Shown here: one piece after another, positions 19,970 to 41,823 of the stretch
How the letters are laid out: each line of letters begins with the position of its first letter
Position numbering within the stretch: position 1 is the stretch's first letter
NCBI GenBank assembly: GCA_023266875.1
Contig: JAHFOJ010000001.1
Location: 12,851 to 76,850 of the forward strand
Origin: Candidatus Giovannonibacteria bacterium
GTDB lineage: Bacteria > Patescibacteriota > Minisyncoccia > JACPKW01 > UBA11713
Reading direction: 5' to 3'
DNA: 64,000 bases
The notes under the pieces: generated by a model
What the model saw: the letters and a program-made list of their open reading frames with translations, nothing else
Databases searched by the model: none
Told to the model about the DNA's origin: nothing
Translations under genes and position numbers: made by a program

Positions 19970-22282
19970 CTATTTTGGCAAAGCGCGCCCTATAGTTTGA
20001 AGAAAATTTTCGGCCTCAATACGGCGCGATGGGTCAAGCTCAAAAACTCGCAGCGCGGCGCGGTAAGCTCCATCTTTATCCCCAGACATAGCTTGGAGAG
20101 CGGCGAATTTTGTATAAACATTTGTAATAGCACTCACATCAAAACCTTTATTTTGACTGTATTCCGCCTCCGCTCTATCAATAAGTATTTTATAAAAATT
20201 GCTTGCTTTATTGTATTTTTTTACTTTAGTGTACGCTTCGACTATATCTTCTATATCATTATCCGAAGTATGCCAACCAGCTTCAGCGGGAATATTCTCG
20301 CGGGGCCAGGAATTCTTACTAAGCCAATCAATTTCTCTAGAAGCTATATCATCGCGTCCGGATAATATCGCGAATGTTGCAAGGTGGCGATGCGCAAGCG
20401 GGAATCTGGGATCGAGAGAAATCGCAGATTCAAGAACTTTAAACGCTTCGTCCATTTTATTTTGATCAATTAGGGCTTGGGACAAGTCAAAATAGATTTG
20501 TTGGCGCTTTGGAGACAGAAAAAGCGCACGCCTCGCGGCAATTTCAGCCGTGGCGGCATACTCAGGATTTAATTTATCCCCTAAAATATAAAGATTTTCC
20601 AAATAGACAAGCCAGCGGGCATTCTCCTGCTCATATGATACATTCCGGCTGATTAGCCGGAGCGCCGTATTAAAATATCTTTTTTCCATTGCAGGCGCGA
20701 GCTTTGAACCGCCGCGCTTTAAATTAAAAACAAGCTCCGCAAAAAATCTCGTGAGCTCCGCATCCATGTAAGCAGGCTCGAGCATAGTTTTTTCATATGC
20801 GTCAATCGCAGAAGCATCATCCGAATTAGCGTATATATTGCTTAGCGCTTCATATGATTTAGCGTTTTTGCCAAGCTGCGCCGCATTTCCCTTCAAAATC
20901 AAAACCAGCGTGGCTAGAGTACCGAGAATAACAATCATAACTTTCAAAAACTCTGGCTTAAAGCCAGCATTTGATAAGGAATTGTTTATGATATGCTGTG
21001 CCACTTCATTATTAGTTCTTGAAACATACGCTAAAACCATCACGATAAATATCAAGACGGTAGCGTTATCAAAAACGAAAGTGTCATTTATTAGATAAGC
21101 AAATCCAAAAGATGTCATAATCGCCTTATCGGTGTAACTCCAAGAATTATTTCTCGCCCAGACATTTCGAAAAATTATCCATAACAAAACAGAAAATAAA
21201 AGGAGGCCCGCGATTCCGAGACTCGAAGTTAAATCCAAAAAGATATTATGAGCGCGGTCGAACCACGGCTCCTGGGCAAAAAGCGCTGGATCATAATATT
21301 TATTAAAAAGAATAATAAAGTTTTCAGGTCCCCAACCGAAAATAGGCCGCTCTTTGATGCCGTTTAAAGCGACGCGCCAGCTTAAAAGTCGCCCCTCAGT
21401 CGTCCGGTCGGAAAGCGAGATACTTGCAATACGCTGAACCGGTGAGAAATTGGCTTTTGCGAGACTGTCTCTAAAAAACCAAACAGATAAAAGCGAGACC
21501 GCGACCAAAACGATAAACGCTGCGCCAATTATTTTCATTTTACGCCGACTAAAAACCCAATATGAAAAATCATGCCGAGAAAAAACAAAAAATAGGGCGA
21601 GAGTGGTTAGCCCGATAGCAATGCCAAGAATCGCGCCGCGTGTTGCCGTCAAAAAAATAACTAAACCGTCGAAAAATGCCGCCGATGCGTAAAAAGCGCT
21701 CTTGAGGCCAAACTTTTTTTCTCTTCCCAAGAGATAAAGCGCAATAAAAAATTGAATCAAGAGAAATGAAGCAAGAAAGGCGGCATTGCCCATGGTTGAC
21801 TCAACCCTGCCGATATTCGTCAAAGTCATTTTTTGCCATACTCCATAGAGAGAAGCCCCAAGGCTTACTAAGATTGAAATATTGAAGTAACGAGCCCAAT
21901 CTTTTTCGTCCCTCATGATTGAAATTAAAATCAAAAAATATAGCCAAAGATGCGCGTATGTAAGAAGCCCCATCATGCGCTCATAATCAGACCAGAAACT
22001 AGCGTGAAATGACTTGCCAAAGTACGCTGAGACAATGCCGCATCCGAGCAATAAAGTCGCAACCCAAAAAACAGAATTAAGTCTGGGACGATATTTTTTG
22101 TAAAATAAGATTAAAGGCAGATAAAAGATAAAAGCAATTTCCAGCAATATTCTGAAATAAAAAGTTTTCGCGCTTGTATAAGGGAAAAACAATCTGCCAG
22201 AAAAAATAAGCGGTGTAGTTAAAATAGCCGCGAGTATTATCACGACCGACCAATATAATATTTTCTCTTTTGGGAACATCAA
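19970..22282 (-). CDS. O-antigen ligase/polymerase-like (Wzy_C) membrane protein with a C-terminal TPR domain
   Basis: 770 aa. About 10-12 TM helices. Large periplasmic loop motif ...GWGPENF...WFDRAHNIFLD. C-terminal roughly 300 aa are TPR-like repeats. Confidence 0.7.
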   Translation of the reverse strand: MMFPKEKILYWSVVIILAAILTTPLIFSGRLFFPYTSAKTFYFRILLEIAFIFYLPLILFYKKYRPRLNSVFWVATLLLGCGIVSAYFGKSFHASFWSDYERMMGLLTYAHLWLYFLILISIMRDEKDWARYFNISILVSLGASLYGVWQKMTLTNIGRVESTMGNAAFLASFLLIQFFIALYLLGREKKFGLKSAFYASAAFFDGLVIFLTATRGAILGIAIGLTTLALFFVFSRHDFSYWVFSRRKMKIIGAAFIVLVAVSLLSVWFFRDSLAKANFSPVQRIASISLSDRTTEGRLLSWRVALNGIKERPIFGWGPENFIILFNKYYDPALFAQEPWFDRAHNIFLDLTSSLGIAGLLLFSVLLWIIFRNVWARNNSWSYTDKAIMTSFGFAYLINDTFVFDNATVLIFIVMVLAYVSRTNNEVAQHIINNSLSNAGFKPEFLKVMIVILGTLATLVLILKGNAAQLGKNAKSYEALSNIYANSDDASAIDAYEKTMLEPAYMDAELTRFFAELVFNLKRGGSKLAPAMEKRYFNTALRLISRNVSYEQENARWLVYLENLYILGDKLNPEYAATAEIAARRALFLSPKRQQIYFDLSQALIDQNKMDEAFKVLESAISLDPRFPLAHRHLATFAILSGRDDIASREIDWLSKNSWPRENIPAEAGWHTSDNDIEDIVEAYTKVKKYNKASNFYKILIDRAEAEYSQNKGFDVSAITNVYTKFAALQAMSGDKDGAYRAALRVFELDPSRRIEAENFLQTIGRALPK

Positions 22283-24514
22283 CTATTTTTTGCCCCTCGC
22301 ATCTTCTATACTCGCTTCAAATTTTGAAACTTCATCCTTTAAACTGTGGTCAAGCGCCAGCGCCTCATGGGCAAAATCCAAAGCTTTATCATAACTTCCC
22401 GAATCGGCGTAAATTTCAGCGAGGGAAAGAGTCGAACTTACACTCTTAGAAGCCCGATATGATGTCTCGTAAAGAAAGGTGGCGATTGCTGGCAATTTTC
22501 TACTAAGCGCGAGTTTGCCTATGGTTTCAATTTCATCATTTTGAATAGCTACGCCCAATTCGTTGATATTAATCAGAGATTTTCTAACCCCCTGTTCGTC
22601 TCCCATAAAAACATACGCCATCATAATAGTTTTCCAAAATGCCCATGACTTGGCCTTATAGCGCTCCAAATCCGCTAAAATCGACGAAGCATTTTCTTTA
22701 TCGCCTCTTGCCAAATAGAGCTCGATTAAACCGATTTTCACCGGAACATAATCAGGTGCCAAAGATACAGCATTTTTATATTCATCTAAAGCTTCTTTGT
22801 AACCATTGCCGGTAAGTGAATAATACTGCTCAAGCAGGCGCGCGAGAAAAATATGATGCTTAGGGCTAAAATGCGCCGCTACTTCCTTCTTCATTTCGCT
22901 AATTGTTAAATTCATGAGCTCTAAAATTTCCTCGGGTTTTAGAGAAGTTTTTGTGGTCACAACTGTATTTGTAAGATTGGTCAATTGCTCCCGCCCTTCA
23001 CGCTGGCCGAACGTGCCCTCACTAAGAACTGACTTGAATTTGCCTAAGACATCGGAAAAATTCACGCCCTCGGAAGTCGTGCTCATGGTATTAATCAAAT
23101 TATAAGCCACGCTTATCGGCTTCGCGTTAATCCAGACCGCTAAAACCAGACCAAAAATAATAGCCGTCGCCGGCGCAATAATTTCCTTTGTGCTGTTGCC
23201 TATTTTCACTCTTAAAGAACTTAGTGTTCCAGTATTCTCTCTCGAAGCCACATAGCCTAAAAACGAAATAAAAATGAGATGCGAGGTGATATTGTCAAAA
23301 ACAAATAGATTTTGAATAAGATACGACACCACAAGCCCTATAGCCAAGATCCCTTCGTTTTTAGTCAACTTTCCCGCTCTCCAAAGTTTTACGAGAGTCC
23401 AAAAAATAATCGCGAATAATGCGAGATACGCTAGCCCTCCGAGAATTCCAGCGGAGACAAACCAATCCAGAACCACATTATGAGTCCGGTCAAACCACGG
23501 CTCGTTTCCAAAAAGGCTCGGAATGTAATGCTCGGCGTAAGGAATCTGAAAATTTTCAAGACCCCATCCAAGAAGCGGCCTATCTTTGACCGCAGAAAGG
23601 CCAATCTTCCAAATCATTACCCGTGAAACCGCGGTCGGCTCCGAAAAAGAAATCGAAGCCAGAGTTGAAATTCCCGGAATATTTTTAGCGATAAGAACGT
23701 CATGGTATTTATAAATCATAAATGCAGAAAAAAGAGATACGGCTATAAGAATTCCAGCCGCAATTTTTATCTTCTTGGATTTATTAAACAGGATGAAGAG
23801 TAAAAGCATTATCAAAAAGCCAGCCCCAAATCCGACTAAAGCGCCGCGCGTTTGGGAAAATAACAGAACAATGGTATCAAGGATAAAAGCTACACCAAGA
23901 ATAATTTTAAGCCAGAGCTTCTTTGACTTAAGAAGTGCCCAGCAAATGAAAAATAGATGAAACAATAGATAAATCGCAAGATATATCGAATTGCCTAAAG
24001 TGGAAAAAATTCTCCCGCCGCCTGTTAAACTTGAAATCGCGCCAGTCTTTTCAAGCAAGCCGTAAAAACTAACAATTACACTTGTCGCGAGAGAGACAAA
24101 AAATAAGACAGTCCAATCCCGATCCTTTTTCATGACAGACGAAAGAACCAAAAACAGAAGGAATAAATGCAAATAAGTTATAAGCCCTTCCATCCGCTCA
24201 AAATTGGACCAGAAACTTCGGTATGGATCAGCGCTAAATACAGTTGAAAGCGATGCAATTGCTATTAAAGCAAATAGCGCCCAAAAAATCATGGTGCGCC
24301 GCGGACGATATTCCTGATTCAAAATAGCGACACTTATCCAAAGGGCGCCAATTATTTCAACTACAATTCTGAAAATAAAATTCTTCCCGCTTATAAATGG
24401 AAAATAAAGCGAAGATGAAATAACAAGAGCAATTAAAGGCAAAATAAAAATTCCTCCTTTAATTATCAGGAGAAAAACCCTCTCAAGCGTCCAAGCATCC
24501 GGTCTTGATGACAT
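22283..24514 (-). CDS. O-antigen ligase-like (Wzy_C) membrane protein with C-terminal TPR domain; tandem paralog of 19970..22282
   Basis: 743 aa with the same architecture. Motif GWGLENF...WFDRTHNVVLD. Start abuts the stop of the downstream paralog. Confidence 0.7.
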   Translation of the reverse strand: MSSRPDAWTLERVFLLIIKGGIFILPLIALVISSSLYFPFISGKNFIFRIVVEIIGALWISVAILNQEYRPRRTMIFWALFALIAIASLSTVFSADPYRSFWSNFERMEGLITYLHLFLLFLVLSSVMKKDRDWTVLFFVSLATSVIVSFYGLLEKTGAISSLTGGGRIFSTLGNSIYLAIYLLFHLFFICWALLKSKKLWLKIILGVAFILDTIVLLFSQTRGALVGFGAGFLIMLLLFILFNKSKKIKIAAGILIAVSLFSAFMIYKYHDVLIAKNIPGISTLASISFSEPTAVSRVMIWKIGLSAVKDRPLLGWGLENFQIPYAEHYIPSLFGNEPWFDRTHNVVLDWFVSAGILGGLAYLALFAIIFWTLVKLWRAGKLTKNEGILAIGLVVSYLIQNLFVFDNITSHLIFISFLGYVASRENTGTLSSLRVKIGNSTKEIIAPATAIIFGLVLAVWINAKPISVAYNLINTMSTTSEGVNFSDVLGKFKSVLSEGTFGQREGREQLTNLTNTVVTTKTSLKPEEILELMNLTISEMKKEVAAHFSPKHHIFLARLLEQYYSLTGNGYKEALDEYKNAVSLAPDYVPVKIGLIELYLARGDKENASSILADLERYKAKSWAFWKTIMMAYVFMGDEQGVRKSLININELGVAIQNDEIETIGKLALSRKLPAIATFLYETSYRASKSVSSTLSLAEIYADSGSYDKALDFAHEALALDHSLKDEVSKFEASIEDARGKK

Positions 24515-24529: not shown

Positions 24530-25369
24530 CTACTTGGCACCTGTCGAATCAAATTTACGCAGTATTGGCAATGCTTCAGAGATTGTTGTGAATTTTGAAT
24601 ATCTTAAGAGATTCTCAAAACGTTTCCGCGCTCTAGCATTCCCCCAATAATTTATAACGCGCGACATAAGCCGCGCCTCCGGCGAACTTTTCTCTAAATC
24701 CAAATCACGCATATGAAAGTAGTAGACAATCGGACAACCAGAAACATTCCAAAAATATTCCAATATTTTTCGCTCCCAATCCGCAAGATACCTAAAATAA
24801 GCGCCTCCGGAAAATGGAATATTTTTTATGAATCTTGCTGTCGGAACAGGTATTTCAAGAATTTTTCCATGTTTGGTTCCGCGAAAATGAGGGAAACGAG
24901 GTGCATGGTTATCGCCATAAAGTGGTGTCTTAAGGGGAAACAAGCTTGATGAATATTCGAATCCAACGCGCTTCAAAATTTCCCAGAACCGCGGAGTTTG
25001 CTTCGCTGACACAGACCACGACGGAGCGCGATAACCAATTACCTTTTCTCCCGATATGGATTCGAGCATTTTTTTGCCAATCGAAATGTCCGCGTCAAAT
25101 TCCGATTCGCTCATATTATAAACAAGTTTGTGCGACATTCCATGAAACGCCAGCTCGTGGCCGGCATTCGCTACCCGCCGAATCAAATCTTTATTCGGCT
25201 CTATAAGATCCCCAACAATGAAAAACGTGGCTTTGGCTTTGCTATCCGTCAGCATTTTGAGAATCGAGTCGAGGCCGCGCGCTAATCCCGCCGGGTCAGA
25301 AGCAATATTTTGCCCCCCAAAATTCATGTGCCGCGCCTCTTCAATATCAAAAGTCAGAATATTGGGCAT
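24530..25369 (-). CDS. Polysaccharide deacetylase (NodB homology domain)
   Basis: 279 aa. ...FDIEE...TFFIVG...GHELAFHGMSH... fits the NodB metal-binding motif pattern. Confidence 0.65.
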   Translation of the reverse strand: MPNILTFDIEEARHMNFGGQNIASDPAGLARGLDSILKMLTDSKAKATFFIVGDLIEPNKDLIRRVANAGHELAFHGMSHKLVYNMSESEFDADISIGKKMLESISGEKVIGYRAPSWSVSAKQTPRFWEILKRVGFEYSSSLFPLKTPLYGDNHAPRFPHFRGTKHGKILEIPVPTARFIKNIPFSGGAYFRYLADWERKILEYFWNVSGCPIVYYFHMRDLDLEKSSPEARLMSRVINYWGNARARKRFENLLRYSKFTTISEALPILRKFDSTGAK

Positions 25370-25400: not shown

Positions 25401-26723
25401 ATGACAATGCATAAGTTCGTGGTAAATTATCGCAAAGAGTTAATAATTTTTTTTATTGCGCTTGCGGCACGGTTATTTTTTTTCGCTTTCTTCTACCCAG
25501 CATTTGGCCACGATAATTTTATCAAAGGTGATGCCATCGAATATTTGAATATTGCCCAGAATATTTGGCAAACCGGCACTTTCTCAAATCTGACGCCGCC
25601 TTCAAGCGTGCCCACAATTTCAGACGGACCGCTCTACCCACTTTTTTTGCTATTAACCGGCTCTCGATTTCATTTTATGTTTCCGCTAATATTCCAGCTT
25701 TTCATAGGTGCACTGACAGCTGTGCTAGTCTATAAGTTAAGCATGCGCGCAGGCCTCAAAAAGAGCGCTTGGCTGGCCTCATCTTTTTTTGTCCTCGAAC
25801 CGGGAATCCTTTTTTTTACATCTCAAATTTTTACGGAAACCTTGTTTCTATTCTTTTTTCTTTTAGGCCTTTATTATATTTCGGATTCGGAACTGCGGAC
25901 AAAACACGTAGCCCTTGCCGCGTTTTTTTTGGCCCTTGCCACACTCGCCCGATCGATTGCGCTTTATTCCTCGTTCGTTTTGTTGATATACATCATCGTA
26001 GTGTCTCTCTTTAAAAAAGAGGCATTACGCCCCATTGTCTTTAAAACTTTCGCATTCGCCGGAATTTTCCTTATAATCATTTCCCCATGGGTCGTAAGAA
26101 ACAAAAAATCATTCAATATCTATACCATAAGTTCAGGAGAGGAAATCTCCCTTGCCGCATATGCAATCCCAGCATATTTTTCATGGCATGACCGCATAGG
26201 ATTTCACGATGCCCAAATTAAAGTACAAACAGATTACGCCGCGCGCGGCATCTATGAAGATTTCGACCGCGGAACAAATTTCAACATTAGAAAAGAATTT
26301 CTGAAAATAGTCTCCTCTGATCCAGCCGGATACATCTGGAGCCAAATCCGTTTTTCCCCTGAGTTCTTTATTTCAAGCGGATGGCAAAGCATCGTGGACG
26401 CATTCCAAAAAAAGAGATTAGAAGTTCCACGTTTCGGCGAAATGCCAGCGCCATCGGCCGCACGGATCTTAGGTTCTGGCTTTTGGCTTGTTCTTACGCT
26501 TCTTGCGCTTGCGGGGATCCTGCGCACTCTAAATGCAGAAAAGAATAATCGCATTCTCTACATTTTATTCGCGCTAATTATTTTTGAATTCGCCTTCCTG
26601 ACAGGCTCATTAGCCCACTCACGCTATCGCTTCCCGGTAAATCCAATTATATTTCTATTCGCCGCTAACGCTATCTATGAAATAAAAACACTATTTCCAG
26701 GCAAGGAGCAAAATGCCGCTTAA
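25401..26723 (+). CDS. GT-C fold membrane glycosyltransferase (ArnT/PMT-like, GT39/83-type)
   Basis: 440 aa. Multi-TM. N-terminal periplasmic-loop motif (F..GHDNFIKGDAIEYLNIAQNI) typical of ArnT/PMT2-family enzymes. Confidence 0.6.
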   Translation: MTMHKFVVNYRKELIIFFIALAARLFFFAFFYPAFGHDNFIKGDAIEYLNIAQNIWQTGTFSNLTPPSSVPTISDGPLYPLFLLLTGSRFHFMFPLIFQLFIGALTAVLVYKLSMRAGLKKSAWLASSFFVLEPGILFFTSQIFTETLFLFFFLLGLYYISDSELRTKHVALAAFFLALATLARSIALYSSFVLLIYIIVVSLFKKEALRPIVFKTFAFAGIFLIIISPWVVRNKKSFNIYTISSGEEISLAAYAIPAYFSWHDRIGFHDAQIKVQTDYAARGIYEDFDRGTNFNIRKEFLKIVSSDPAGYIWSQIRFSPEFFISSGWQSIVDAFQKKRLEVPRFGEMPAPSAARILGSGFWLVLTLLALAGILRTLNAEKNNRILYILFALIIFEFAFLTGSLAHSRYRFPVNPIIFLFAANAIYEIKTLFPGKEQNAA

Positions 26724-27058: not shown

Positions 27059-28078
27059 TTATAGACCTATTTGCGAATTAATTTTAGGACCGAGGGCTTT
27101 AATTACGAACGAAGGCAATAATCTCCAAACCGAGGAGGCTATTTTAAATAAGCGACTTTCGGGATCCGGCGGATTAATTTTCTTTCCATAAAAATAGAAT
27201 GCGTCAGTCAAGGGCATTTCTTCGGCGCCCCAACCACTTTTCGCAAAATATATGTTCGTTCTTGGCCGAGTTCTCCCAAAATCTATCATCAAATAGCCGT
27301 TTCTCTTCCCCCATTTTATCAGTTCCCACATTAAAAATGTCTGCGGATCCAGCTTGCGAAAATCATTCGTGACGACACTAGACCAATGATAAAGTTTTTT
27401 CTTATAACACATTACCGTGTAAGCTGCGACTTCTCGATTTTCAAATATAGCAAAAAACAACTTAAAAATTCCAACTGAATGCAATTCATCCCAAAGACAA
27501 TAAAAAAACTCTAAAGACTGCTGAGGTGACCCATGCCGCCTCATAGTCTCCAAGTAAATTGGATAAAAGAGTTTAAGATCTTCTCTCGCGCTAACTTCTT
27601 TAAAAATAAGTTTATTTTCGCGCTCTATTTTATGAATCTCGTTGCGGATATTTTTCCGCATTTGAGCTAATAGCGCGTCTTCGTCTCTGGCGATATCAAG
27701 CTCAAAAGTTACATATATTGACCGGCAAATAAAATGTAATTTTTCAAAAATATGTTTATGCGATTCCTGAACATCCCTTATCTCGATTGATCTGACATTC
27801 CTATCCTTTCCTTCTCGGATTGCCGTCCGAAGTAAATCCAATCGGTTCTCATTAGAAGACGCCAACGGCCCTCCATGATCCGCAAAAGGCATCGAGATTA
27901 GCCGATCCCCAAAAATAAAACTTTTTATAAAAACCAATGGCAATACTCCGCCATCTTCGATATAGATGGGTTCAATTCCAGCTGTACGGCAAATCTCGCC
28001 CCATTCCCATAAATGATATGGAGCTGACCCTAGATTTGAATTGACTAGTTCATTCCACTTTATCCGATCGATCGCCAT
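27059..28078 (-). CDS. FemAB-family (GNAT-fold) aminoacyl/acyl transferase-like protein
   Basis: 339 aa. ...LPLVFIKSFIFGDRLISMPFADHGGPL... and a C-terminal GNAT-like half resemble FemAB / exosortase-associated acyltransferases. Confidence 0.45.
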   Translation of the reverse strand: MAIDRIKWNELVNSNLGSAPYHLWEWGEICRTAGIEPIYIEDGGVLPLVFIKSFIFGDRLISMPFADHGGPLASSNENRLDLLRTAIREGKDRNVRSIEIRDVQESHKHIFEKLHFICRSIYVTFELDIARDEDALLAQMRKNIRNEIHKIERENKLIFKEVSAREDLKLFYPIYLETMRRHGSPQQSLEFFYCLWDELHSVGIFKLFFAIFENREVAAYTVMCYKKKLYHWSSVVTNDFRKLDPQTFLMWELIKWGKRNGYLMIDFGRTRPRTNIYFAKSGWGAEEMPLTDAFYFYGKKINPPDPESRLFKIASSVWRLLPSFVIKALGPKINSQIGL

Positions 28079-28397
28079 TGTGAAGCGCTATTTCGCGCAC
28101 TATCTTCGTAAGATTCTGCTCTAAACTTTCAATTTGCATCAAAAGTTTAAAAATAACATAAAAAATAAGCAAAATCGCAATAAAAAACGCGGCATCAGTC
28201 CCACGCGAAACACCTAAAAAAACTGCGACGACATCAGAAAATGCCGGATGAAATACGACCACAATCACAATAAGCCAAAGAACAAACCACGCAGCAAGAC
28301 GCCTTAATGAAAGCGCCCCTCTGCGGTAAGAAGCAAATAAACTCGCAAGAGCGAGAAATGAAATAAGTGTTGCTAAAATTTGGATGTAACTAAGCAT
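28050..28397 (-). CDS. Small 2-3 TM membrane protein (DUF2304-like, GT2-associated)
   Basis: 115 aa. Hydrophobic N-terminal two thirds. Typical partner of GT2 genes. Family name is from memory. Confidence 0.4.
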   Translation of the reverse strand: MLSYIQILATLISFLALASLFASYRRGALSLRRLAAWFVLWLIVIVVVFHPAFSDVVAVFLGVSRGTDAAFFIAILLIFYVIFKLLMQIESLEQNLTKIVREIALHNGDRSDKVE

Positions 28398-28506
28398 ATT
28401 TTTCTATCTTAATTTATTATCGCGAACAAACCGATCGCAAATGTGATTAAATTAATATAATCTAGCCCAATCATCTAAATATAGAATAGCATGAAATTAT
28501 TATTTT

Positions 28507-30939
28507 ATGAATAGATTATTGCTAGACATTGTGCTAGACTTTCGGGATATAATGAATCGAAAAACTTGCTATAAAATCGCCGCAGTCATTATTGTCGGAG
28601 CAAGCCTGACCGCGTTCGCATATTATAGCTTGAACGCCAAAGATCAGTTAATCCGCTCCCCCTTTTACCAGTATTTTCTGCACACATTCCGTTCATTTAG
28701 AAAACTGGCGGACATACCATATCTTATCTATAAACCGATCCCAGATAATCTTCCGGTCTATGAACTTGCGCTTTCGACAAAAGATATAGCAGAACTTGAC
28801 CGCGCGCTTCCGCAAGATCCGATAAAAGGGCGCCTGACCGATGAATACAAAACTGAAGTTAAGGCGTATTTCCGGTCTGGAGATTATTTGGAGCAAGTTA
28901 AGGTAAGATATCGCGGCTGGGAACCAAACCACTGGAACGCGATGAAAAAATCATATTTTATTAAATTTTCCAGCGAAGCGCCTTTCAACGGCTACAAAGA
29001 AATTTCATTTATAATCCCTGAAGATAGATCTTACGGCGCTGAAGCTCTTAATATATATCGCGCTCAAAAACTTGGACTCTTCGCACCTAAAATATGGTTT
29101 GCGCATATAAAGCTAAATGGGCAAGACATGGGAGTTTACCTTGCCATCCCGCATTGGTATAGAAATCTTCTTGAAACAAATAAAATACAGGACGCTTCCA
29201 ATATTTTCGTAACTAAAGACCTTTCTCTCCAAGATCAGAAACAGGTAGATTTTTTTGATCCAAAAAATATAGATTTATGGAAAGACGCGGTAAGCAACAC
29301 TGACACAAATCCACAGGGAGCGGCGGAGCTTAAAAATTTCCTTGAGCTTTTATATAACGCCCCTGAAGCGATTCTTGAGAAAACAGCCCCAATAGCGATT
29401 AATATGGATGACTTTTATTCTTGGATGATTTTAAACTCTCTCACTTCCTCCAGCCACCAAAACAAAAATAATAATAGCATTTTCTTAAGAAACTCTATAG
29501 ATAATAAATTCTCGCCAATCCCTTGGGATGTTGGCATATTTAAGCCCGGCCCTGTCAGGCTTGATTTAAATATTCTCGCCGGGCGGATATTATCTATACC
29601 AGTTTTTCGAGATGAATATCTAAAACGGCTCAGCGGATATGTTTCAAACCCAGGCAACTTGAGAGATGATTTGGCTTATTATGACAAAATAACAGCTGAA
29701 ATAAAAATTCCGCTTTATAAGGATCTAGCTAAATTGCCCCTAAATTATCAAGTCGGGAAAGATATTTCTAAATATCGAAAAATGATTGAACAAAACTTTA
29801 ATTATGTAAAAGACACTCTGGTCTCCGGTAATACAAATGAATTATTTCAAGGATCAGCCCAAGTTAACATAAATCCAGACTATAAATTACCTCCATTTTA
29901 TGAAGCGGCATCCGCGGCTTTAGCAACATTTCTCGCTCTGCATCCGCAATTTTATCCCCAAGACGAAGACACGGTTGCAATCGGGCCAGGCAGTTACACA
30001 ATTTCAGAAGATGTAGTGGTGCCAGCAAAATATTCGCTTGACATCAAACCCGGAACGACACTTTTTATTAACGGGGGGGCTTCCATCATTTCTTGGAACA
30101 AGCTTACGGCTCAAGGCAAGCCTGATGCGCTCATTACTATTAAAAAAGCCAATGAAAAACCTTGGGGGAATATTTTGATAATAGGGGCACCGAACGAGAC
30201 GAGCATTTTAAAATTCGTGAATATATCCGGCGGATCAGGATTCCACAAATACGGCATAACTCAAACCGGCATGCTGGCGTTCGCCGCCAAAGGTCAAAAC
30301 GTGGTTGTTAAAAATAGTTCTTTTAATAATTCTTATGACGATGATGAGTTAAATATTAAATATGGGAATGTCTTGATCGAAAATAATACTTTCAATGATT
30401 CATATTCTGATGCGATCGATCTTGACGTATCCACCGGCATCGTTCGAGGAAATACATTCACTGAGCTTGGCTTCCGGCAAACCGATAAGCCGCCGATCTT
30501 GGACGGCGATGGAATAGATATTAGTTTTTCAAAAATTGAAATCTCCTATAATGTAGTTTTGAACTGTGCCGATAAGGGACTATCTCTCGGCGAGGTCTCT
30601 GAACCAACGGCGCACGATAATTTTATCTACGATTGTAATTTTGGCGCTGCGGTCAAAGACCGCTCGCAAGCGCACATGGATCGTAATTACTTCATTGCAA
30701 ATCGCACGAGCGGAGTCGATATCAAGGAGAAAAAATCGCTCTATGGACCAGGCCAAGCGTGGGTAACCAACTCGCTGTTTTGGAAAAACAAACAAGATAT
30801 CTCGATTGAAAATAATTCCAATCTCGCCGAAAGCACAAATAATATTCTGGGCATCATTCCTTCTTCAACTCTAGATTTTAAAATAATTCTTCCTCCAGAA
30901 TTTTATAGAATATTTGAAACGCTGAATATTTCAAAATGA
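28507..30939 (+). CDS. Membrane-anchored CotH-family atypical kinase fused to a C-terminal right-handed parallel beta-helix domain
   Basis: 810 aa. N-terminal signal-anchor helix. CotH-like core (...LNIYRAQKLGLFAPKIWFAHIKLNGQDMGVYLAIPHW...DDFYSWMILNS...PIPWDVGIF). C-terminus has repeated NxxxxN/beta-helix rungs (VVKNSSFNNS, VLIENNTFNDS, IVRGNTFTE...). Confidence 0.65.
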   Translation: MNRLLLDIVLDFRDIMNRKTCYKIAAVIIVGASLTAFAYYSLNAKDQLIRSPFYQYFLHTFRSFRKLADIPYLIYKPIPDNLPVYELALSTKDIAELDRALPQDPIKGRLTDEYKTEVKAYFRSGDYLEQVKVRYRGWEPNHWNAMKKSYFIKFSSEAPFNGYKEISFIIPEDRSYGAEALNIYRAQKLGLFAPKIWFAHIKLNGQDMGVYLAIPHWYRNLLETNKIQDASNIFVTKDLSLQDQKQVDFFDPKNIDLWKDAVSNTDTNPQGAAELKNFLELLYNAPEAILEKTAPIAINMDDFYSWMILNSLTSSSHQNKNNNSIFLRNSIDNKFSPIPWDVGIFKPGPVRLDLNILAGRILSIPVFRDEYLKRLSGYVSNPGNLRDDLAYYDKITAEIKIPLYKDLAKLPLNYQVGKDISKYRKMIEQNFNYVKDTLVSGNTNELFQGSAQVNINPDYKLPPFYEAASAALATFLALHPQFYPQDEDTVAIGPGSYTISEDVVVPAKYSLDIKPGTTLFINGGASIISWNKLTAQGKPDALITIKKANEKPWGNILIIGAPNETSILKFVNISGGSGFHKYGITQTGMLAFAAKGQNVVVKNSSFNNSYDDDELNIKYGNVLIENNTFNDSYSDAIDLDVSTGIVRGNTFTELGFRQTDKPPILDGDGIDISFSKIEISYNVVLNCADKGLSLGEVSEPTAHDNFIYDCNFGAAVKDRSQAHMDRNYFIANRTSGVDIKEKKSLYGPGQAWVTNSLFWKNKQDISIENNSNLAESTNNILGIIPSSTLDFKIILPPEFYRIFETLNISK

Positions 30940-31676
30940 TAAATACATTCTATCGTTTCGAATTTAAATATCATATCTCGCGTCAACTTGCCCTCATTTT
31001 AGAAAGCGAGCTTAAACATTTTGGGATGAAGCCTGACGCATATGCCCAAAAAACCGAAACGAAATCATACATAGTAAACAGTCTTTATTTTGATTCGCTT
31101 TTGATGGACGATTATTTTGACAAAACCGGAGGATTTTTGGAGAGAAAGAAAATTAGAGCAAGAATTTATGAACCGTTTATCAAAGACTCAACCGTTGTCT
31201 GGCTTGAGATGAAAATGAAACACGATATCGCTGTTCGGAAAGAACGCGTTTCGCTGACACTCCCAGAGTGGTCGCTTCTACAAAAAAGCGAAAATTATTC
31301 AAAAGTCGCTGGACTCAAAGATCCGGAAGAAAGGAGAGTATTTGAAAATATCGCTTTCAGAATTATTGGAGACAATATGCGCCCGCAGGCTGTTATACGG
31401 TACGAACGAAAACCTTTGGTTTACAGGCACGTCGAAGAAGTGAGAGTAACGTTCGACTGGAATTTGGAAACTTGCCGAGCTGATAATTTAGGCTATAATC
31501 CAGTTTATTCGCTCTTTCTGCCGCGCGACCAAGTTATTATGGAATTAAAATTTCAAACCCTGTTGCCCATATGGCTCCGAGATATAATTGGAAAATTCGG
31601 CCTGCGGCGTGATGCTTTTTCTAAGTATGGATATGGCCTTGAAGAGCTTAACCGCTATATTTCAATCCCGCGCTAA
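30936..31676 (+). CDS. VTC-domain protein (CYTH-like triphosphate-tunnel / polyphosphate-polymerase-like), soluble
   Basis: 246 aa. N-terminal YRFEFKY (the R.E.KY tunnel motif), with further K/R/E-rich strands. 4-nt overlap with the CotH gene. Confidence 0.6.
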   Translation: MINTFYRFEFKYHISRQLALILESELKHFGMKPDAYAQKTETKSYIVNSLYFDSLLMDDYFDKTGGFLERKKIRARIYEPFIKDSTVVWLEMKMKHDIAVRKERVSLTLPEWSLLQKSENYSKVAGLKDPEERRVFENIAFRIIGDNMRPQAVIRYERKPLVYRHVEEVRVTFDWNLETCRADNLGYNPVYSLFLPRDQVIMELKFQTLLPIWLRDIIGKFGLRRDAFSKYGYGLEELNRYISIPR

Positions 31677-31823
31677 AGCGTCGATTGATGAAAAATAATG
31701 ATAAAAAATGATAATCCAAATATATATTTCAGCTGTTGTAAAAAGTGGTGCGGGATATTCAATTGTTTAGATAAAATATTTATTGTAAACTTAATTTATT
31801 AACGTAATTTTATAAAAATTGGC

Positions 31824-32495
31824 ATGTCAAACTTTTTCAATCTCACAAGCACAGAATTATCGGCAACGGTAATAATTTTTAATTTATTCCTAGCGCTTAC
31901 TTTGGAACTAGTGATCGCCTGGGTATATAGGAAAACCCACCACGGTATTGCCTACTCGCAATCATTTCTCATGACGATTGTCATCATGGGGATCATGGTT
32001 TCCGTTGTAATGATGGTCGTAACCAATAATATCGTCGGTGCGTTTGCGCTCCTTGGAGCGTTCTCGCTAATCCGCTTCCGAACCATCATGAAAGAAACGC
32101 GTGACATCGCGTTTCTGTTTTCAGCGCTTGCCATTGGTGTCGCAGTAGGAACATCAAACTATTCCATCGCCATAATTGTTACGGTTTTTGTTGGCGCGCT
32201 TATCCTGATTTTAGAACGGCTAAATTTTGGATCTCTCGTACGGCGCGGCTATATTCTCACATTCCTTGCAGGTCGTGGGCACAACGAAACCAACCTCGAC
32301 AAAGTCTTCATAGAGTTCCTATCAGAATCACGTATTCTGCACGTTAAAGGTTTTAAAGAAGGAGAACGAGAATTTGCATACTTAATTAAACCAAAAGACG
32401 AAATGCAAATCTCAGAATTTATAAATCGCCTTGAGGCCCTGCCCGATCTTTCAGCCCCGTCCATCATCACCGGGCACGAAACCTCGGAGTATTAA
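31824..32495 (+). CDS. DUF4956 membrane protein
   Basis: 223 aa. Three or four N-terminal TM helices containing the conserved LLGAFSLIRFRT segment. Soluble C-terminal about 90 aa. Confidence 0.6.
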   Translation: MSNFFNLTSTELSATVIIFNLFLALTLELVIAWVYRKTHHGIAYSQSFLMTIVIMGIMVSVVMMVVTNNIVGAFALLGAFSLIRFRTIMKETRDIAFLFSALAIGVAVGTSNYSIAIIVTVFVGALILILERLNFGSLVRRGYILTFLAGRGHNETNLDKVFIEFLSESRILHVKGFKEGEREFAYLIKPKDEMQISEFINRLEALPDLSAPSIITGHETSEY

Positions 32496-32497
32496 TT

Positions 32498-34171
32498 TTA
32501 ATTTGCAAGATCTTTCCTCAAAAGGATCTTGCTTGATCCTATTTGATTAACTTCCCTGTAATTATTGCTTACAAATTCTCGTATCGGCGGCTGAAATTTA
32601 AAGACAAAATCGGTCATGCGCTTATCAATCACAACATAACGCGGCGGGCGCGAAATTAGCTCTTTGAGAACCTCGGCTGGAGAAGGATAGGAAAAAAATT
32701 GCTCTTCAAAAGATGGGGCAAATTTGAAACCGAAAGGTGAAACGTCTTCAAACACTCCGCGACCCGCAAGCACAACTGGCAATCGATTTGCCGTAAATAT
32801 ATCTTCACCAGGAGCACTATTTTTTTCGATAAAGGATTCGAGAGTCCTCATTTCTGATTGTGTCCAATACCACCCCTCCCCTTTTGGATTTAAAAACCAT
32901 GCGCCCCCTGATATCCAGAAACTAAGTACCCCGAAAATAAATAAGACTTTCATAAAAAGGGAGAGGTCCCGAAAAGGAAACTGGGAAAAAGCAATTCCAG
33001 ACATGATCGCAACTATTGGAATGAATTCCCGAATATAGCCTGGATCCCAAATAGTGTAAGCTATAATTAAAATCAAAAACCAAACGAGGAGAAAAAGTGG
33101 TAAATGAGTAAGGTGCTCTAAAAACTTAAAGTTGTCACTAAAAATAAACTGTAAAAAAGAAATAATGATCAGAAGAGCAGAAATCATCATTAACAAAAAT
33201 ACCTCAGGTCGAAAGTTGGGCGCCACAAACCAGATATGCAAAGAATGAAATACAAGCGCGCCGTAAACAATTATTAATAGTGCGCTGATAATCCATCTCT
33301 CAAAATATTTAAAATAGCGCTTAATAAGAAGGATAAAAAAGAGAATCATTCCTGAAAATAGAAGCCAGCCCTCAAGCGCCAGCCCCTCAATAAAAGCAAG
33401 CCCCCATGTTCGGATCTGAAGGTAAAAGGAGGTACGCGCATGCGTAACATTTTGGCGCCACGCATTTCCATTGAAAATCTGCCAAATTAAGCCTAACCAA
33501 TATTCCCCAGCTGCTACTGCATTATGAGAGAAAATCCAAAGAAATATGGGCAAAAACCCGACCCCCATACCTGCCCAAAAAATTAGAACTTCCATGAGTA
33601 TATATCTCCCCCAAATTAGATATATTGTGAAGGCAAGCATCGCTGCAAGTGCCGACTGGCGTTCCAGATATGCTAAACCTAAACTTATCCCTGCAAAAAA
33701 AATCAAGAACCTACGATGACGGGTTATTCCATAATGAAGGGATAAAAGAGCTAAAAGTGTAAACATAATAGAAAAGGATTCAATTTTAATAATACTCTCG
33801 CGCCATAAGACAAAGGGTGAAAGCACATAAAATGCCGCCGCATACCACCCCGCGCGCTCAGAGCAAAAAGCTCGTGCTAAAAGAAAAATAAGAACTGCAA
33901 TCAAAGCAGAAGCAAGTAATACAGGAAGTCGTGCAGCAAAAAGATTACGTCCAAAAAACATAAGCGACAAATCGGTCAATATAATCAAAATAGGTGCGCG
34001 GGCAGAATAATCAGCGACAGGCACTAATCCTTGCCCAAACAAAATTGCCTGATGAATTCGGATGCCCTCATCCCCCGCTATCCTTACTAGCGGGAATACT
34101 AAAACGTGCAGCAGAATACTAAATGTAAAAATAAATATAATTTTCGATGAATTTTTCTTAAAATAGTCCAT
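32498..34171 (-). CDS. GT-C fold membrane glycosyltransferase (ArnT/PMT-like)
   Basis: 557 aa. More than 10 TM helices. N-terminal periplasmic loop with D-E motif (RIAGDEGIRIHQAILFGQG). Confidence 0.6.
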   Translation of the reverse strand: MDYFKKNSSKIIFIFTFSILLHVLVFPLVRIAGDEGIRIHQAILFGQGLVPVADYSARAPILIILTDLSLMFFGRNLFAARLPVLLASALIAVLIFLLARAFCSERAGWYAAAFYVLSPFVLWRESIIKIESFSIMFTLLALLSLHYGITRHRRFLIFFAGISLGLAYLERQSALAAMLAFTIYLIWGRYILMEVLIFWAGMGVGFLPIFLWIFSHNAVAAGEYWLGLIWQIFNGNAWRQNVTHARTSFYLQIRTWGLAFIEGLALEGWLLFSGMILFFILLIKRYFKYFERWIISALLIIVYGALVFHSLHIWFVAPNFRPEVFLLMMISALLIIISFLQFIFSDNFKFLEHLTHLPLFLLVWFLILIIAYTIWDPGYIREFIPIVAIMSGIAFSQFPFRDLSLFMKVLFIFGVLSFWISGGAWFLNPKGEGWYWTQSEMRTLESFIEKNSAPGEDIFTANRLPVVLAGRGVFEDVSPFGFKFAPSFEEQFFSYPSPAEVLKELISRPPRYVVIDKRMTDFVFKFQPPIREFVSNNYREVNQIGSSKILLRKDLAN

Positions 34172-34272: not shown

Positions 34273-35925
34273 TTATTTTATGTGAAATTGGCGTTTAATA
34301 ACCGTCATTCCCTCTACTTTACTATACGATTCAGTTACGTCAAGCAAATTAGAATTTAGCTCTCTTCCTAAAAAGTAATGAGAACTTGGTATAAATATAT
34401 ACGAAGCTTTAACTCCACAATATATTTTTTCTCGCGAAAGGTTTGACCCTATACGATCTTCCACATCGATTCCATCTGCGCATAAAGTTATCTTTCTTCT
34501 AAAAGGGACTGATGAGACATCGTGCCCAACAATAAGTTTTTTTCGTGCATATTGCTTTAAAAGCCTTTGTAATAATGGAATGCGCCCAAAAGTGAAGCCA
34601 AAAAGGCGAGAGAGAATAAATGAAGCACTAGAAAAAACATATTCTCTAATGGAGTGCAGTAATCCTTCAGATGAAACATATTCTGGCATAGAAGTGATAT
34701 GATTTTTTTGATCGAGAACGCCGGAAATAAGTTTCTGGCCGTTATACACAACACCTATTCCTGAATCGAAATAAACCTTTCCTTTTGCGTATAGCCGGAA
34801 AGAGCCCCCCTTATACAGGTTAATAATAAAATAATAAGTACTATTTTGAACAATTCGAATACCGCTTGATGAGAAGAAAATATCTATACGACGGAATTGA
34901 AAATATGAGAAAATATCTGGCATATTTTTTATTTCTGAAAAAGAAATGCCTGCGTAAAGCCAATTGTAAAGAATATAGCAAAGATAACGGTCATCGAGCT
35001 TTTCTGGAGATATCCCTAACTTGCAGACAAGCGCCTCCTGCATAAAACTACTAATAACTAAGGCGTTTTGATCAAATCGAGCGAACATTACAAAACCGGA
35101 AGGGATGAGATATTCTGTATTGCGCGATGCATATTCTCCTCCCACCGTCAGATCGGGATGCAAAAAATTAATGATAAACGCTGAAGCTTTTTTGATACTT
35201 TCTCTAATTTCTGGACGATTCGTTTTAAGATAGCATTTTACAAGGTAATCAATTGTGAGGGATAAATAGCCTATGTCTGGGCCGCCATATTCATTCCACC
35301 AGCCTTCAGAGCGCTGAAGCGACAGAAAACGAGTTAGCATAGACTCAAATAACATTTCATATTTTTTGTCGCCTGTCAGTACGCCTAGATTGTACATTGC
35401 TAAAAGCGCTCCTGCAAATTGGTTTTGTACTAATAATTCCTCTCGGCCTGAAAGTAAATCAGCGCTTCTGGCAAGCATTGCCACGTGACTCCTGAAATTA
35501 TTTATCTTTGTAGCTCCTAAAATAAGAAGTGATTCGGAAAGCGCTGCGGTAACAAAAGCCGTTGAGACAAACGACCCCTCATGAGGATACCACTCATCAA
35601 ATGACCCATCCGCACGCTGAATAGTATGCGTAAAAGCGAAGGCTGCATTTATCCAATCCAAGAGAAGCTGATCGGCGAAGTAACGATTTCCTTCAAAATC
35701 AGTACTCCAAAGGAGACTCAAAGTTAGAATAGCTTCTTGGAAACGGGAGGAATTCATATCAGAAGAATGATAATGCCAAAAGGCACGATCAAACGAGCCA
35801 TAGGTTCGGGATAAAACATTCCGATCCAGCTGACCTAGTAAGCGCGGAATATTTTCGAGCACAGATTCAAAAAAAATATTTGATTTTATCTGTGACATGT
35901 AATTACGGCGACTGAACCAAGCCAA
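34273..35925 (-). CDS. Large soluble protein, possibly heparinase II/III-like (alpha/alpha toroid plus beta-sandwich)
   Basis: 550 aa, Trp/aromatic-rich (FWHYHSSD, DEWYPHEGSFVSTAFVTAAL). Assignment is tentative. Confidence 0.35.
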   Translation of the reverse strand: MAWFSRRNYMSQIKSNIFFESVLENIPRLLGQLDRNVLSRTYGSFDRAFWHYHSSDMNSSRFQEAILTLSLLWSTDFEGNRYFADQLLLDWINAAFAFTHTIQRADGSFDEWYPHEGSFVSTAFVTAALSESLLILGATKINNFRSHVAMLARSADLLSGREELLVQNQFAGALLAMYNLGVLTGDKKYEMLFESMLTRFLSLQRSEGWWNEYGGPDIGYLSLTIDYLVKCYLKTNRPEIRESIKKASAFIINFLHPDLTVGGEYASRNTEYLIPSGFVMFARFDQNALVISSFMQEALVCKLGISPEKLDDRYLCYILYNWLYAGISFSEIKNMPDIFSYFQFRRIDIFFSSSGIRIVQNSTYYFIINLYKGGSFRLYAKGKVYFDSGIGVVYNGQKLISGVLDQKNHITSMPEYVSSEGLLHSIREYVFSSASFILSRLFGFTFGRIPLLQRLLKQYARKKLIVGHDVSSVPFRRKITLCADGIDVEDRIGSNLSREKIYCGVKASYIFIPSSHYFLGRELNSNLLDVTESYSKVEGMTVIKRQFHIK

Positions 35926-37244
35926 CCAACCCTGCGCAATCCTTGCGCGCGCATCAATCCCGCAAGCATACGACTTATCACATCATCCCTGCGGTCGCGG
36001 TGTAAATAGCTAGAGCCTTCCGAACGAATATACTGTACTAACATTTGATATGCCTGCTCATAGAATGGTGGGAGAAAAAAATATCCCGACCATTGGATGT
36101 TTTTGAAACCGAGTTTTTTTAGTTCGCGTGTAATAAACGAGAGCCGCAGAGGCTTATAGGGGCCAAAAAAACTATAAATGCCAGTTTTGCGTAAATCTTT
36201 ACCAAAGAGCCCCTTAATTATAAAGAAAAAGAAGAAGAGAAATAGATTTGATTTGCGTGAAATAATGACCAACTTACCTCCATCGTCAAGCGCGGCATGA
36301 GCTCTTGCAAGAAATTCACACTTGAGAACGTCCGAAATACGTTCGAGTTTAAATATAAATGTGGCGGTTTTTGGCCTCGGTTCAGCCAACAGAGGCCTTA
36401 CTTCATTGTAAACCTGATGAGTGAATTGGGAAGTATTAAGATGATTTAATTCTAATGCTGCTGCCGTATAACGTGATGTTTCTGTCGTCAAATCGATTGA
36501 AATAATTTTCACCTCCCGAGGAAATTCCCGTAAATAACTGCCGTCATAACTTAAAAAATCAAAAATAGGGCCGGATACTTCCTTTAATTTTTCGCGAATT
36601 ATTTTTCGTTCAGAGTCACTTATAATATCCATCTCCTTGCCTAAAAATGTCTTGCGACAATAATATTTCTGGTGGTTCTTGAGATCATCAAGAGTCCAAT
36701 CGTTGGGATTATAAGTAAAAGGAGGCCTTCTTCTGAGCTTAAATCGTCCCCAATGAATTGTCTCGTTTACTGGGCGACGAGATACAACTGGCTGACTCTC
36801 GGCTCGCTCGTCCGGATAGCCTATTGTTACAAAGCAACAAATAACTTCTGAATCTGGAATCTCTAAAATTTTTTTAATCTTCCTATCCGCTCCATAACTA
36901 TTCATCGCCATAGCAGAGAGACCATAATAATGCGCAGCAAGCAAAATATGCCCTACAGCAAGACTAGCTCCTTGCATCGCCTCTTTATAGTTCCACCCAT
37001 CAAACGTCACAATAAGAATTGTAGGCACACGGCGAAGCATTGTATTGGAAGCTGCCTCATTGATTAATTGCTCTTTCGTTTCAGCATCCTCAATGACAAT
37101 AAAATTCCAAAGCTGCAAGTTGCAATTGGTGGGGGCGTACGTAGCAAGTGTTAAAATTTTCTCGAGGGTCTCATGATCAATCGGTTTAGGGAGAAAACTG
37201 CGAGCACTTTTTCGCGTCTCGAGAACTTCGAGAAAAGATTTCAT
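35886..37244 (-). CDS. Fusion protein: N-terminal nitroreductase-family domain plus C-terminal class I methyltransferase-like domain
   Basis: 452 aa. Residues 1-150 are nitroreductase fold (RKSARSFLPKPI...ATYAPTNCNLQLWNFIVIED). C-terminal half is methyltransferase-like (...LARAHAALDDGGKLVIISRK). Overlaps the upstream gene by 40 nt. Confidence 0.5.
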   Translation of the reverse strand: MKSFLEVLETRKSARSFLPKPIDHETLEKILTLATYAPTNCNLQLWNFIVIEDAETKEQLINEAASNTMLRRVPTILIVTFDGWNYKEAMQGASLAVGHILLAAHYYGLSAMAMNSYGADRKIKKILEIPDSEVICCFVTIGYPDERAESQPVVSRRPVNETIHWGRFKLRRRPPFTYNPNDWTLDDLKNHQKYYCRKTFLGKEMDIISDSERKIIREKLKEVSGPIFDFLSYDGSYLREFPREVKIISIDLTTETSRYTAAALELNHLNTSQFTHQVYNEVRPLLAEPRPKTATFIFKLERISDVLKCEFLARAHAALDDGGKLVIISRKSNLFLFFFFFIIKGLFGKDLRKTGIYSFFGPYKPLRLSFITRELKKLGFKNIQWSGYFFLPPFYEQAYQMLVQYIRSEGSSYLHRDRRDDVISRMLAGLMRAQGLRRVGWLGSVAVITCHR

Positions 37245-38228: not shown

Positions 38229-38387
38229 TTAAAAAAGAACGTAGATAAAAGGGGCTAAAGCAGAACTTTCCGCAACTACAATCAGAGCCCCAAGTAAAAC
38301 CAAAAAGAAGATGATTGGCGCAAGCCACCATTTTTTACGCGTTTTTAGAAATTGCCAAATTTCAGAAAGAATTAATAGTTTTGACAT
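38229..38387 (-). CDS. 52-aa single-TM small protein (MSKLLILSEIWQFLKTRKKWWLAPIIFFLVLLGALIVVAESSALAPFIYVLF); resembles the small DUF5989/SxtK-like proteins that accompany carbamoyltransferases
   Basis: Not in the ORF track (under 60 aa). ATG at 38387, TAA at 38229..38231. Overlaps the SGNH-hydrolase stop by 26 nt. Family resemblance is from memory only. Confidence 0.35.
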   Translation of the reverse strand: MSKLLILSEIWQFLKTRKKWWLAPIIFFLVLLGALIVVAESSALAPFIYVLF

Positions 38388-40006: not shown

Positions 40007-40007
40007 T

Positions 40008-41768: not shown

Positions 41769-41823
41769 AATATCGAGTTTAGCATATTTGAAACTGTTGG
41801 CGCGAGGCGCTATTATACTTTTA

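Follow-up and report, generated by a model that had tools for sequence, protein, structure and literature searches.

Kinases of the CotH family have been described in spore coats and, in fungi, as invasins; CotH itself was first recognized by its similarity to Fam20C. Bacillus CotH (PDB 5JD9/5JDA; B. subtilis) is a single domain of ~360 amino acids (aa) whose place of action is the mother cell, where ATP is present; its substrates are CotB and CotG, and it relies on a catalytic aspartate, D228. In the B. subtilis enzyme neither auto- nor trans-phosphorylation survives the substitution D228Q, and D251A has also been reported to be catalytically inactive (PMC7821199). CotH genes also occur beside polysaccharide genes, in an accessory cassette of cotH, a polyphosphate polymerase gene and a DUF4956 gene (with a DUF4832 gene in addition) that adjoins Gram-positive Pel loci (Whitfield et al. 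2020, 10.1101/768473). Deleting the CotH-like and DUF4956-like genes of the S. intermedius set SIR_1592-1594 lowers Pel and aggregation (mBio 2025; PMC12345266). Descriptively, then, the three-gene cassette is already known.

Here we analyze a 64,000-nucleotide stretch of a Candidatus Giovannonibacteria genome (assembly GCA_023266875.1, contig JAHFOJ010000001.1, positions 12,851 to 76,850 of the forward strand; hereafter the window), in which a gene on the plus strand at 28507..30939 encodes a CotH domain fused to a right-handed parallel beta-helix, and in which the genes of a VTC-domain protein and of a DUF4956 membrane protein lie beside it on the same strand. The protein shares with Bacillus CotH the atypical kinase-like fold and the Y-R-G, K-K-S, N-G...Y, loop Asn and P-W-D motifs. 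It differs in being membrane-anchored and, by prediction, turned outward, in having a histidine in place of the aspartate and one more residue in the loop, and in carrying a beta-helix of ~300 aa. It belongs to a large CotH clade of bacteria and archaea, whose members are predicted to face outward, have exchanged the catalytic aspartate for a near-invariant histidine, and are almost always linked in operons to a VTC polymerase and a membrane protein.

The fold assignments rest on several lines of evidence. The 810-aa open reading frame lies exactly where the earlier note on this DNA, made from the letters alone, had placed it, and each motif quoted there was located in the translation: PIPWD at residues 337-341, VVKNSSFNNS at 600-609, VLIENNTFNDS at 622-632, IVRGNTFTE at 645-653, ISYNVVLNC at 679-687 and FIYDCNFG at 706-713. 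The homologues, whose sequences start level with residue 16, point to M16, the ATG at 28552, as the probable true start. A hydrophobic membrane anchor follows at residues 22-42 (28570..28632; assigned by hydropathy, with a helix at 18-40 in the model), and a corresponding N-terminal segment is present in 50 of 51 diverse family members. Since R18, K19 and K23 precede this hydrophobic helix, the positive-inside rule suggests an N-in/C-out topology with both domains outside the cell.

The CotH domain, an atypical protein-kinase-like fold, occupies residues ~80-440 (28744..29826), as assigned by Pfam, by a profile match to 5jd9 and by Foldseek. PF08757 is matched at residues 133-376 with E 2.7e-18 and 67 bits against a gathering cut-off of 23.8, a match that spans profile positions 1-261 of 322 only. 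The beta-helix occupies residues 482-775 (29950..30831), again by Pfam, by models and by Foldseek, and PF13229 (Beta_helix) is matched at residues 595-743 with E 9.6e-16 and 58 bits against a cut-off of 25.9. An AlphaFold2 model of the full-length protein, built with 11 homologues in the input, reached a mean predicted local distance difference test score (pLDDT) of 85.5 and a predicted template-modeling score (pTM) of 0.83; it lays out as an N-terminal helix, an alpha/beta domain to ~440 and an all-beta domain at 482-775, and the C-terminal domain modeled alone gave a pLDDT of 92 and a pTM of 0.90. In Foldseek searches of the PDB, the N-terminal half matched B. cereus CotH 5jd9 with E 8.1e-17 and a target-normalized TM-score of 0.82 (a family profile found the same entry with E 2.8e-35), and the C-terminal half matched right-handed beta-helix proteins with probability 1.0, its neighbors being AlgG, PL31, PL6, tailspikes, GH87, AlgE, GH28, RbmB and NosD. 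Fold and Pfam score together place the protein in the CotH family. The combination of a CotH core with a C-terminal right-handed beta-helix, which the earlier note had read from the sequence and for which it had suggested structure prediction and a structure search, is thus borne out far beyond chance by Pfam, AlphaFold2 and Foldseek alike, with 5jd9 recovered for the first part and the polysaccharide lyase, epimerase and hydrolase class for the second.

Whether the CotH part is a kinase is a different matter. The B. cereus equivalents of the B. subtilis catalytic residues are D224 (in 'NFDG'), N229 and D247 (in 'PWD'); the correspondence of B. subtilis D228/D251 to B. cereus D224/D247 is taken from the identical 23-residue spacing. 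In the window protein the metal-binding aspartate of the P-W-D motif is D341 (29527..29529), equivalent to D247 and, by that spacing, to D251. The catalytic loop reads H317-Q-N-K-N-N-N323 (29455..29475), in which N323 is retained and the catalytic site itself is without an acidic residue. In one profile alignment D224 falls opposite Q318 (posterior ~0.9); in three others (hmmalign to the family hidden Markov model, MAFFT in local mode and a 51-sequence profile) it falls opposite H317, a pairing that makes the loop one residue longer, H-x5-N against D-x4-N. H317 is found in 129 of 150 relatives and the residue after it varies (Q, T, A, V, S, G and others); an acid stands at either 317 or 318 in only four of the 150. 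N323 is present in 152 of 156 aligned sequences, and at position 341 the relatives have D in 125 cases and N in 24. K147/K148 and R136 are near-invariant across very divergent phyla. The K147-K148-S149 motif (28945..28953) is common to B. cereus CotH, where it appears as 'EKKSY', and is conserved in the clade, as are the Y-R-G and N-G...Y motifs of the B. cereus protein.

Judged on its residues, the window protein does not have the active site of a canonical CotH kinase. The earlier note had called it a kinase and had pointed to catalytic residues around PIPWD; that expectation holds for D341 and N323 and fails for the catalytic-loop aspartate, whose place is taken by H317-Q318. The annotation 'CotH kinase family protein', under which such proteins are listed at NCBI, overstates current knowledge. 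At the same time, the conserved His, Asn, Asp and Lys argue for a chemistry that has been retained with a different catalytic residue, because purifying selection on H317, N323 and D341 points to something other than a dead domain. A precedent for histidine at such a place may be seen in the PI3K-type lipid kinases, in which a catalytic-loop His has been proposed as the base for the inositol 3′-OH (PMC8930771).

The His-type loop appears to be a trait of the clade, because fused proteins and stand-alone CotH paralogues of the Candidate Phyla Radiation (CPR) share it, and two VTC-linked CotH proteins of cultured Firmicutes keep the aspartate ('NTD' and 'NID'). The same observations led us to reject two narrower or wider rules, namely that the H-Q loop goes together with fusion to a beta-helix, given that the stand-alone CPR paralogues have it too, and that it is general to all VTC-linked CotH, given the two Firmicutes proteins. 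A stand-alone CotH of 415 aa in another Parcubacteria genome (locus L008, 10060-11307, minus strand), encoded between VTC and DUF4956 genes, has the loop 'V-A-E-P-Q-N', with Ala-Glu where neither His nor Asp is found, and 'PSDE' in place of PWD; by its sequence it represents a third loop type within the clade.

The association that the earlier note did not mention, and which alters the likely mechanism, is with VTC and then DUF4956. The VTC gene (30936..31676, plus strand) encodes a 246-aa Vtc4-like polyphosphate polymerase (PF09359, E 2.2e-32), and the VTC start and the CotH stop overlap in an ATGA at 30936-30939, from which the two genes are predicted to be translationally coupled. Searched singly against the PDB, the VTC sequence found no match; a profile of 14 syntenic VTC proteins, and only this, found the Vtc4 catalytic domain 3g3q (E 5.4e-16). 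Its invariant residues K11, R74, R76, K93 and E203 align to Vtc4 K200, R264, R266, K281 and E426, and R264A/R266A/E426N is the inactive Vtc4 used in the cryo-electron microscopy study of the VTC complex, in which polyphosphate synthesis is coupled to membrane translocation (PMC9911596). Hydropathy finds no hydrophobic segment in the VTC partner, which has its catalytic residues in place and looks catalytically competent and cytoplasmic.

The DUF4956 gene (31824..32495, plus strand; 223 aa; PF16316, E 4.2e-15) encodes a membrane protein with, by hydropathy, ~4 transmembrane segments and a C-terminal soluble domain of ~85 aa. Residues R84, F85, R86, K90 and D94 (RFR...K...D) are invariant in its family alignment (A4). 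They belong to a motif, G..S.(I/V)-R-F-R-x3-K-x3-D, that lies just past the third hydrophobic segment and recurs in CPR, archaea, Firmicutes and others. The RFR motif is a candidate site of contact with phosphate or polyphosphate.

How general is this arrangement? We surveyed 79 loci, and counted synteny in the 47 reference loci that had at least 2.5 kb on both sides. VTC and DUF4956 were found within 3 kb in 42 of these 47, with the three genes on one strand in 41. The matches had E-values of 1e-40 to 1e-80, and the gene orders, with C for CotH-beta-helix, V for VTC and D for DUF4956, were CVD (19 loci), VDC (9), DVC (7), DCV (6) and CDV (1). Such linked loci occur in CPR bacteria, DPANN archaea, Planctomycetota, Chloroflexota, Acidobacteriota, Proteobacteria and others. 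VTC and DUF4956 are the most strongly conserved partners found, ahead of the glycan genes. The first six homologue loci, L008 among them, come from close Parcubacteria; they had the same glycan gene set as the window with no adjacent VTC/DUF4956, and had given the impression that the linkage was peculiar to this genome, an idea that the 79-locus survey led us to reject. No second CotH gene is present in the window.

The beta-helix, for its part, carries a conserved charged ladder over successive rungs (30340..30735), a candidate face for ligand binding or catalysis. It is made up of D612 D613 / D635 D638 D640 / D668 D671 / D689 K690 S693 G695 E696 / K717 D718 S720 / K742 K743, and each of these residues reaches at least 90% conservation over a set of 51 sequences of ~30% identity. 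Rung periodicity, rather than coordinates, suggests that the ladder lies on one face of the helix, where it looks like a binding or catalytic cleft and not like a passive stalk. Catalysis in the AlgG/AlgE mannuronan C5-epimerases depends on a DPHD-type motif, whose His is conserved and sits on the face of the helix; among the positions at least 90% conserved in the 51 sequences there is no His, and the AlgG-type DPHD motif is absent. The structural matches of the beta-helix, with AlgG, PL31 and PL6 as the best neighbors, have TM-scores of 0.3-0.48 and identities of 9-14%, and a family profile searched against the PDB found no significant beta-helix enzyme (pectate lyase 4u49 at E 0.14, GH28 1k5c at E 0.26, mannuronan epimerase at E 0.64). 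The domain can be placed in the beta-helix fold class but not in any defined CAZy family. The description 'pectate-lyase-like' in the earlier note therefore holds for the fold class and not for sequence relationship, where the profile matches to pectate lyase, GH28 and epimerase stayed at E 0.14-0.66.

The same note had considered the fusion unusual, which it is not. An exhaustive HMMER search of 1.84 billion cluster representatives at 50% identity returned 5169 matches with E<=1e-3, of which 542 reached E<=1e-30, and the architecture is common among relatives: 137 of the 160 collected have both domains, 13 have CotH only and 10 beta-helix only, some of the single-domain sequences probably being fragments. 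In a one-genome-per-species collection there are at least 488 relatives (488 of 599 candidate stretches among the matches listed). The hosts among the matches listed include many CPR lineages, DPANN archaea (Nanoarchaeota, Iainarchaeum, Woesearchaeota), Planctomycetota, Chloroflexota, Acidobacteriota, Gemmatimonadota, Myxococcota, Proteobacteria, Omnitrophica and others. The CotH-beta-helix fusion is, in short, widespread. The best relatives come from Candidatus Giovannonibacteria and other Parcubacteria/Patescibacteria, at identities of 59% and below. A phage collection searched with a stand-alone CotH (P0010) gave no match. NCBIfam holds no curated model for the CotH-beta-helix protein, the VTC protein, the DUF4956 protein or the 550-aa protein encoded nearby, and the literature search found no paper on the fused family.

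What, then, could donate phosphoryl groups to a kinase-fold enzyme that is located beyond the membrane, in surroundings poor in ATP? The linkage to a polyphosphate polymerase suggests an answer, namely exported polyphosphate. We propose, with a probability of roughly 0.4, that the CotH-beta-helix protein is the extracytoplasmic part of the three-gene cassette, an ecto-enzyme that binds a surface glycan and transfers to it phosphate from the polyphosphate supplied by VTC and DUF4956. In this scheme the VTC protein would make polyphosphate from ATP in the cytoplasm, and DUF4956, by analogy with the eukaryotic VTC complex, would pass the polyphosphate or its phosphoryl groups over the membrane. 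Outside, the beta-helix would hold the surface glycan while the His-type CotH domain moves phosphate, or a polyphosphate chain, onto it, with H317 serving either as a general base, in the manner of the DRH-loop His of lipid kinases, or by way of a phospho-histidine. What results would be a cell-surface polymer that bears phosphate or polyphosphate, and the export of polyphosphate would solve the donor problem of an ecto-kinase.

Several observations weigh against this proposal. The close Parcubacteria loci L001, L003, L004, L007, L011 and L017 have no adjacent VTC/DUF4956, so the CotH-beta-helix protein can evidently work without an adjacent copy, and the VTC/DUF4956 pair of L008, which lies 3.5 kb from the CotH-beta-helix gene, has its own stand-alone CotH. 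B. subtilis D228Q is dead, so that loss of the aspartate could equally mean loss of activity, and the Asp-rich ladder could bind cations instead of a glycan. That the scheme should hold in its widest form, as a polyphosphate-driven, His-dependent ecto-phosphorylation or polyphosphorylation of surface glycans, with polyphosphate replacing ATP, wherever the His-type CotH-beta-helix, VTC and DUF4956 occur together in CPR, DPANN and many phyla, we consider unlikely.

It is conceivable, if somewhat unlikely, that the CotH part is a pseudokinase with a binding or regulatory role (toward nucleotide, polyphosphate or a partner protein, for example) and that the beta-helix is the sole enzyme, trimming or remodeling the glycan of the locus as a lyase, hydrolase or epimerase. 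The catalytic Asp is gone, and the Gln that takes its place in one of the alignments is the very substitution that inactivates the B. subtilis enzyme; a conserved Asp/Lys/Glu ladder is typical of active clefts, and the top structural neighbors are all glycan-active. DUF4832 proteins, moreover, are glycoside-hydrolase-like. Gram-positive Pel loci carry DUF4832 as a separate gene with the cassette (10.1101/768473). Set against this are the near-invariance over divergent phyla of H317, N323, D341, K147/K148 and R136, which would not be expected of a dead site, the want of a significant CAZy sequence match to the beta-helix and of any conserved ladder His of the AlgG DPHD type, and the tight coupling to a polyphosphate polymerase, which a pseudokinase leaves unexplained.

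In another alternative polyphosphate would itself be the substrate, held on the Asp ladder via Ca2+ or Mg2+ and anchored, capped, cut or ligated there into a surface coat, with the glycan not being the acceptor at all. Binding of a polyanion through Asp and Ca2+ is an established mode in beta-helix lyases (PL1, PL6, PL9) and could be at work here, the phosphate site of a kinase fold could form a phospho-enzyme with its His, and the partners that persist across phyla are VTC and DUF4956, with no single glycan gene among them. We nevertheless hold this to be decidedly unlikely: the closest relatives lack adjacent VTC/DUF4956 yet always lie inside glycan loci, the structural neighbors of the beta-helix are all carbohydrate-active, and the literature searched offered no precedent. 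Least of all do we expect a canonical ATP-dependent Ser/Thr kinase of surface proteins (S-layer or pilin glycoproteins) with the beta-helix as stalk or adhesin. Such a kinase would suit the CotH fold found by Pfam and structure, the source annotation and the retained K-K-S, Asn and Asp motifs, and is made very improbable by the missing catalytic Asp, by the extracytoplasmic position of the domain, where ATP is normally unavailable, by a ladder that is too conserved for a mere stalk, and by the fact that no Ser-rich substrate gene like cotB or cotG was seen next to the CotH-beta-helix gene. Transfer from exported polyphosphate onto a glycan remains the reading that we prefer.

As the earlier note had held, the gene sits inside a glycan-biosynthesis locus, both here and in relatives. 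Glycan-assembly and tailoring genes run from ~17.9 kb to at least 54.3 kb of the window and comprise a Bac_transf initiating transferase, GT2 and GT1 glycosyltransferases, two tandem Wzy_C+TPR proteins, three PMT_2-type GT-C proteins, a flippase, two polysaccharide deacetylases, carbamoyl-, acetyl- and methyl-transferases, a DegT aminotransferase, a 2-oxoglutarate (2OG) oxygenase and others. The loci of the closest homologues hold PMT_2, carbamoyltransferase, SxtJ/DUF5989, GDSL, nitroreductase, GT2, Wzy_C and Bac_transf genes, and on two plasmids of cultured Firmicutes a set of CotH, polyphosphate polymerase and DUF4956 genes likewise lies inside glycan loci.

Some of these neighbors merit description in their own right. 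The tandem paralogues of ~750 aa at 19970-22282 and 22283-24514 (minus strand) combine Wzy_C, an O-antigen ligase/polymerase-like domain, with C-terminal TPR, and the pair recurs in loci L003 and L004. They could be polymerases or O-oligosaccharyltransferases; if the latter, the locus would specify a protein-glycosylation system rather than a capsule. Three PMT_2/GT-C paralogues lie within 30 kb, at 25401-26723 (plus strand), 32498-34171 (minus strand) and 52347-53690 (minus strand). One PMT_2/GT-C gene is convergent with the DUF4956 gene and 3 nt from its end, and a PMT_2 gene stands directly 3′ of the CotH-beta-helix gene in L001, L003 and L007. The deacetylases at 24530-25369 and 50420-51286 (minus strand), one of them with DUF3473, imply that the product of the locus may contain de-N-acetylated, cationic amino sugars, which would attract polyphosphate electrostatically. 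At 38362-41879 (minus strand) there is a module of carbamoyltransferase, small SxtJ-like open reading frame (39719-40006) and GDSL, conserved, often with DUF5989, in L001, L003 and L004; it recalls tailoring genes of saxitoxin clusters, perhaps reused for glycan modification. The 550-aa protein at 34273-35925 (minus strand) has one hydrophobic segment and no Pfam or NCBIfam match, and in L003 an unannotated gene for 528 aa occupies the same place, beside a nitroreductase-domain gene. The window has a protein of the latter kind at 35886-37244 (minus strand; 452 aa), in which the nitroreductase domain is matched in two stretches; in L003 the corresponding gene is beside a GT2 gene, and proteins of this kind are not usual companions of glycan genes.

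As to the DNA itself, a scan of 28000-32800 found promoter-like sites at the level of shuffled sequence (13 vs 13.9) and terminator-like sites modestly above it, none of them usefully at an operon boundary. There are no tRNA genes in the window. The GC skew is negative in all 2-kb bins but one, with a cumulative value of -3.5, and G+C content ranges over ~0.36-0.47.

The wider interest of the system lies in what it would add to each of its parts. We know of no assigned role for prokaryotic VTC and DUF4956 proteins. The enzyme of the proposed transfer, if that is correct, would be the first case of an ecto-kinase driven by polyphosphate and would give both of these families a first function. 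CPR and DPANN organisms live as episymbionts by means of their surfaces, and for them a surface glycan modified with phosphate would be of biological importance. Should the CotH part instead prove to be a pseudokinase, it would be a natural case of a laboratory-inactivating change that has become fixed across phyla.

How the system stands among known ones can be set out part by part. With the Gram-positive Pel cassette it shares three gene families side by side at exopolysaccharide genes and a CotH member that is predicted to be secreted. The partner domain of the S. intermedius CotH is FN3, whereas here it is a beta-helix, and the window locus is of the Wzy_C/PMT_2/flippase type rather than of the Pel type. 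The mBio paper reports that it did not find the synteny outside Pel loci (PMC12345266), whereas we find it in 42 of 47 loci and in many phyla; the literature searched held no description of the His-type, beta-helix-fused form, of its breadth over CPR, DPANN and many phyla, or of its occurrence outside Pel loci. With the eukaryotic VTC complex (Vtc4/Vtc3/Vtc1) the likeness is one of homology, the window VTC being related to the tunnel domain of Vtc4 with the catalytic residues kept. The window protein is without SPX and without a transmembrane domain, however, and the sequence of DUF4956 has no relationship to the transmembrane domains of the Vtc proteins; translocation is hypothetical.

The beta-helix polysaccharide enzymes (AlgG/AlgE, PL6/PL31, GH28, GH87, phage tailspikes) have in common with the window domain their fold class and the polar or charged ladders over their rungs, and differ from it by the low identity of 9-14% and by the DPHD-type His that it does not have. 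Lastly, kinase-fold enzymes that phosphorylate sugars are familiar from the xylose kinase Fam20B and from POMK. Sugar and cyclitol kinases of this sort (Fam20B, POMK, PI3K-type) resemble the proposed enzyme in the action of a protein-kinase-like fold on a carbohydrate-type hydroxyl and, in PI3K, in the loop His. They use ATP in ATP-containing compartments, though, and have no detectable specific sequence relation to it beyond the fold; the analogy is a mechanistic one only.

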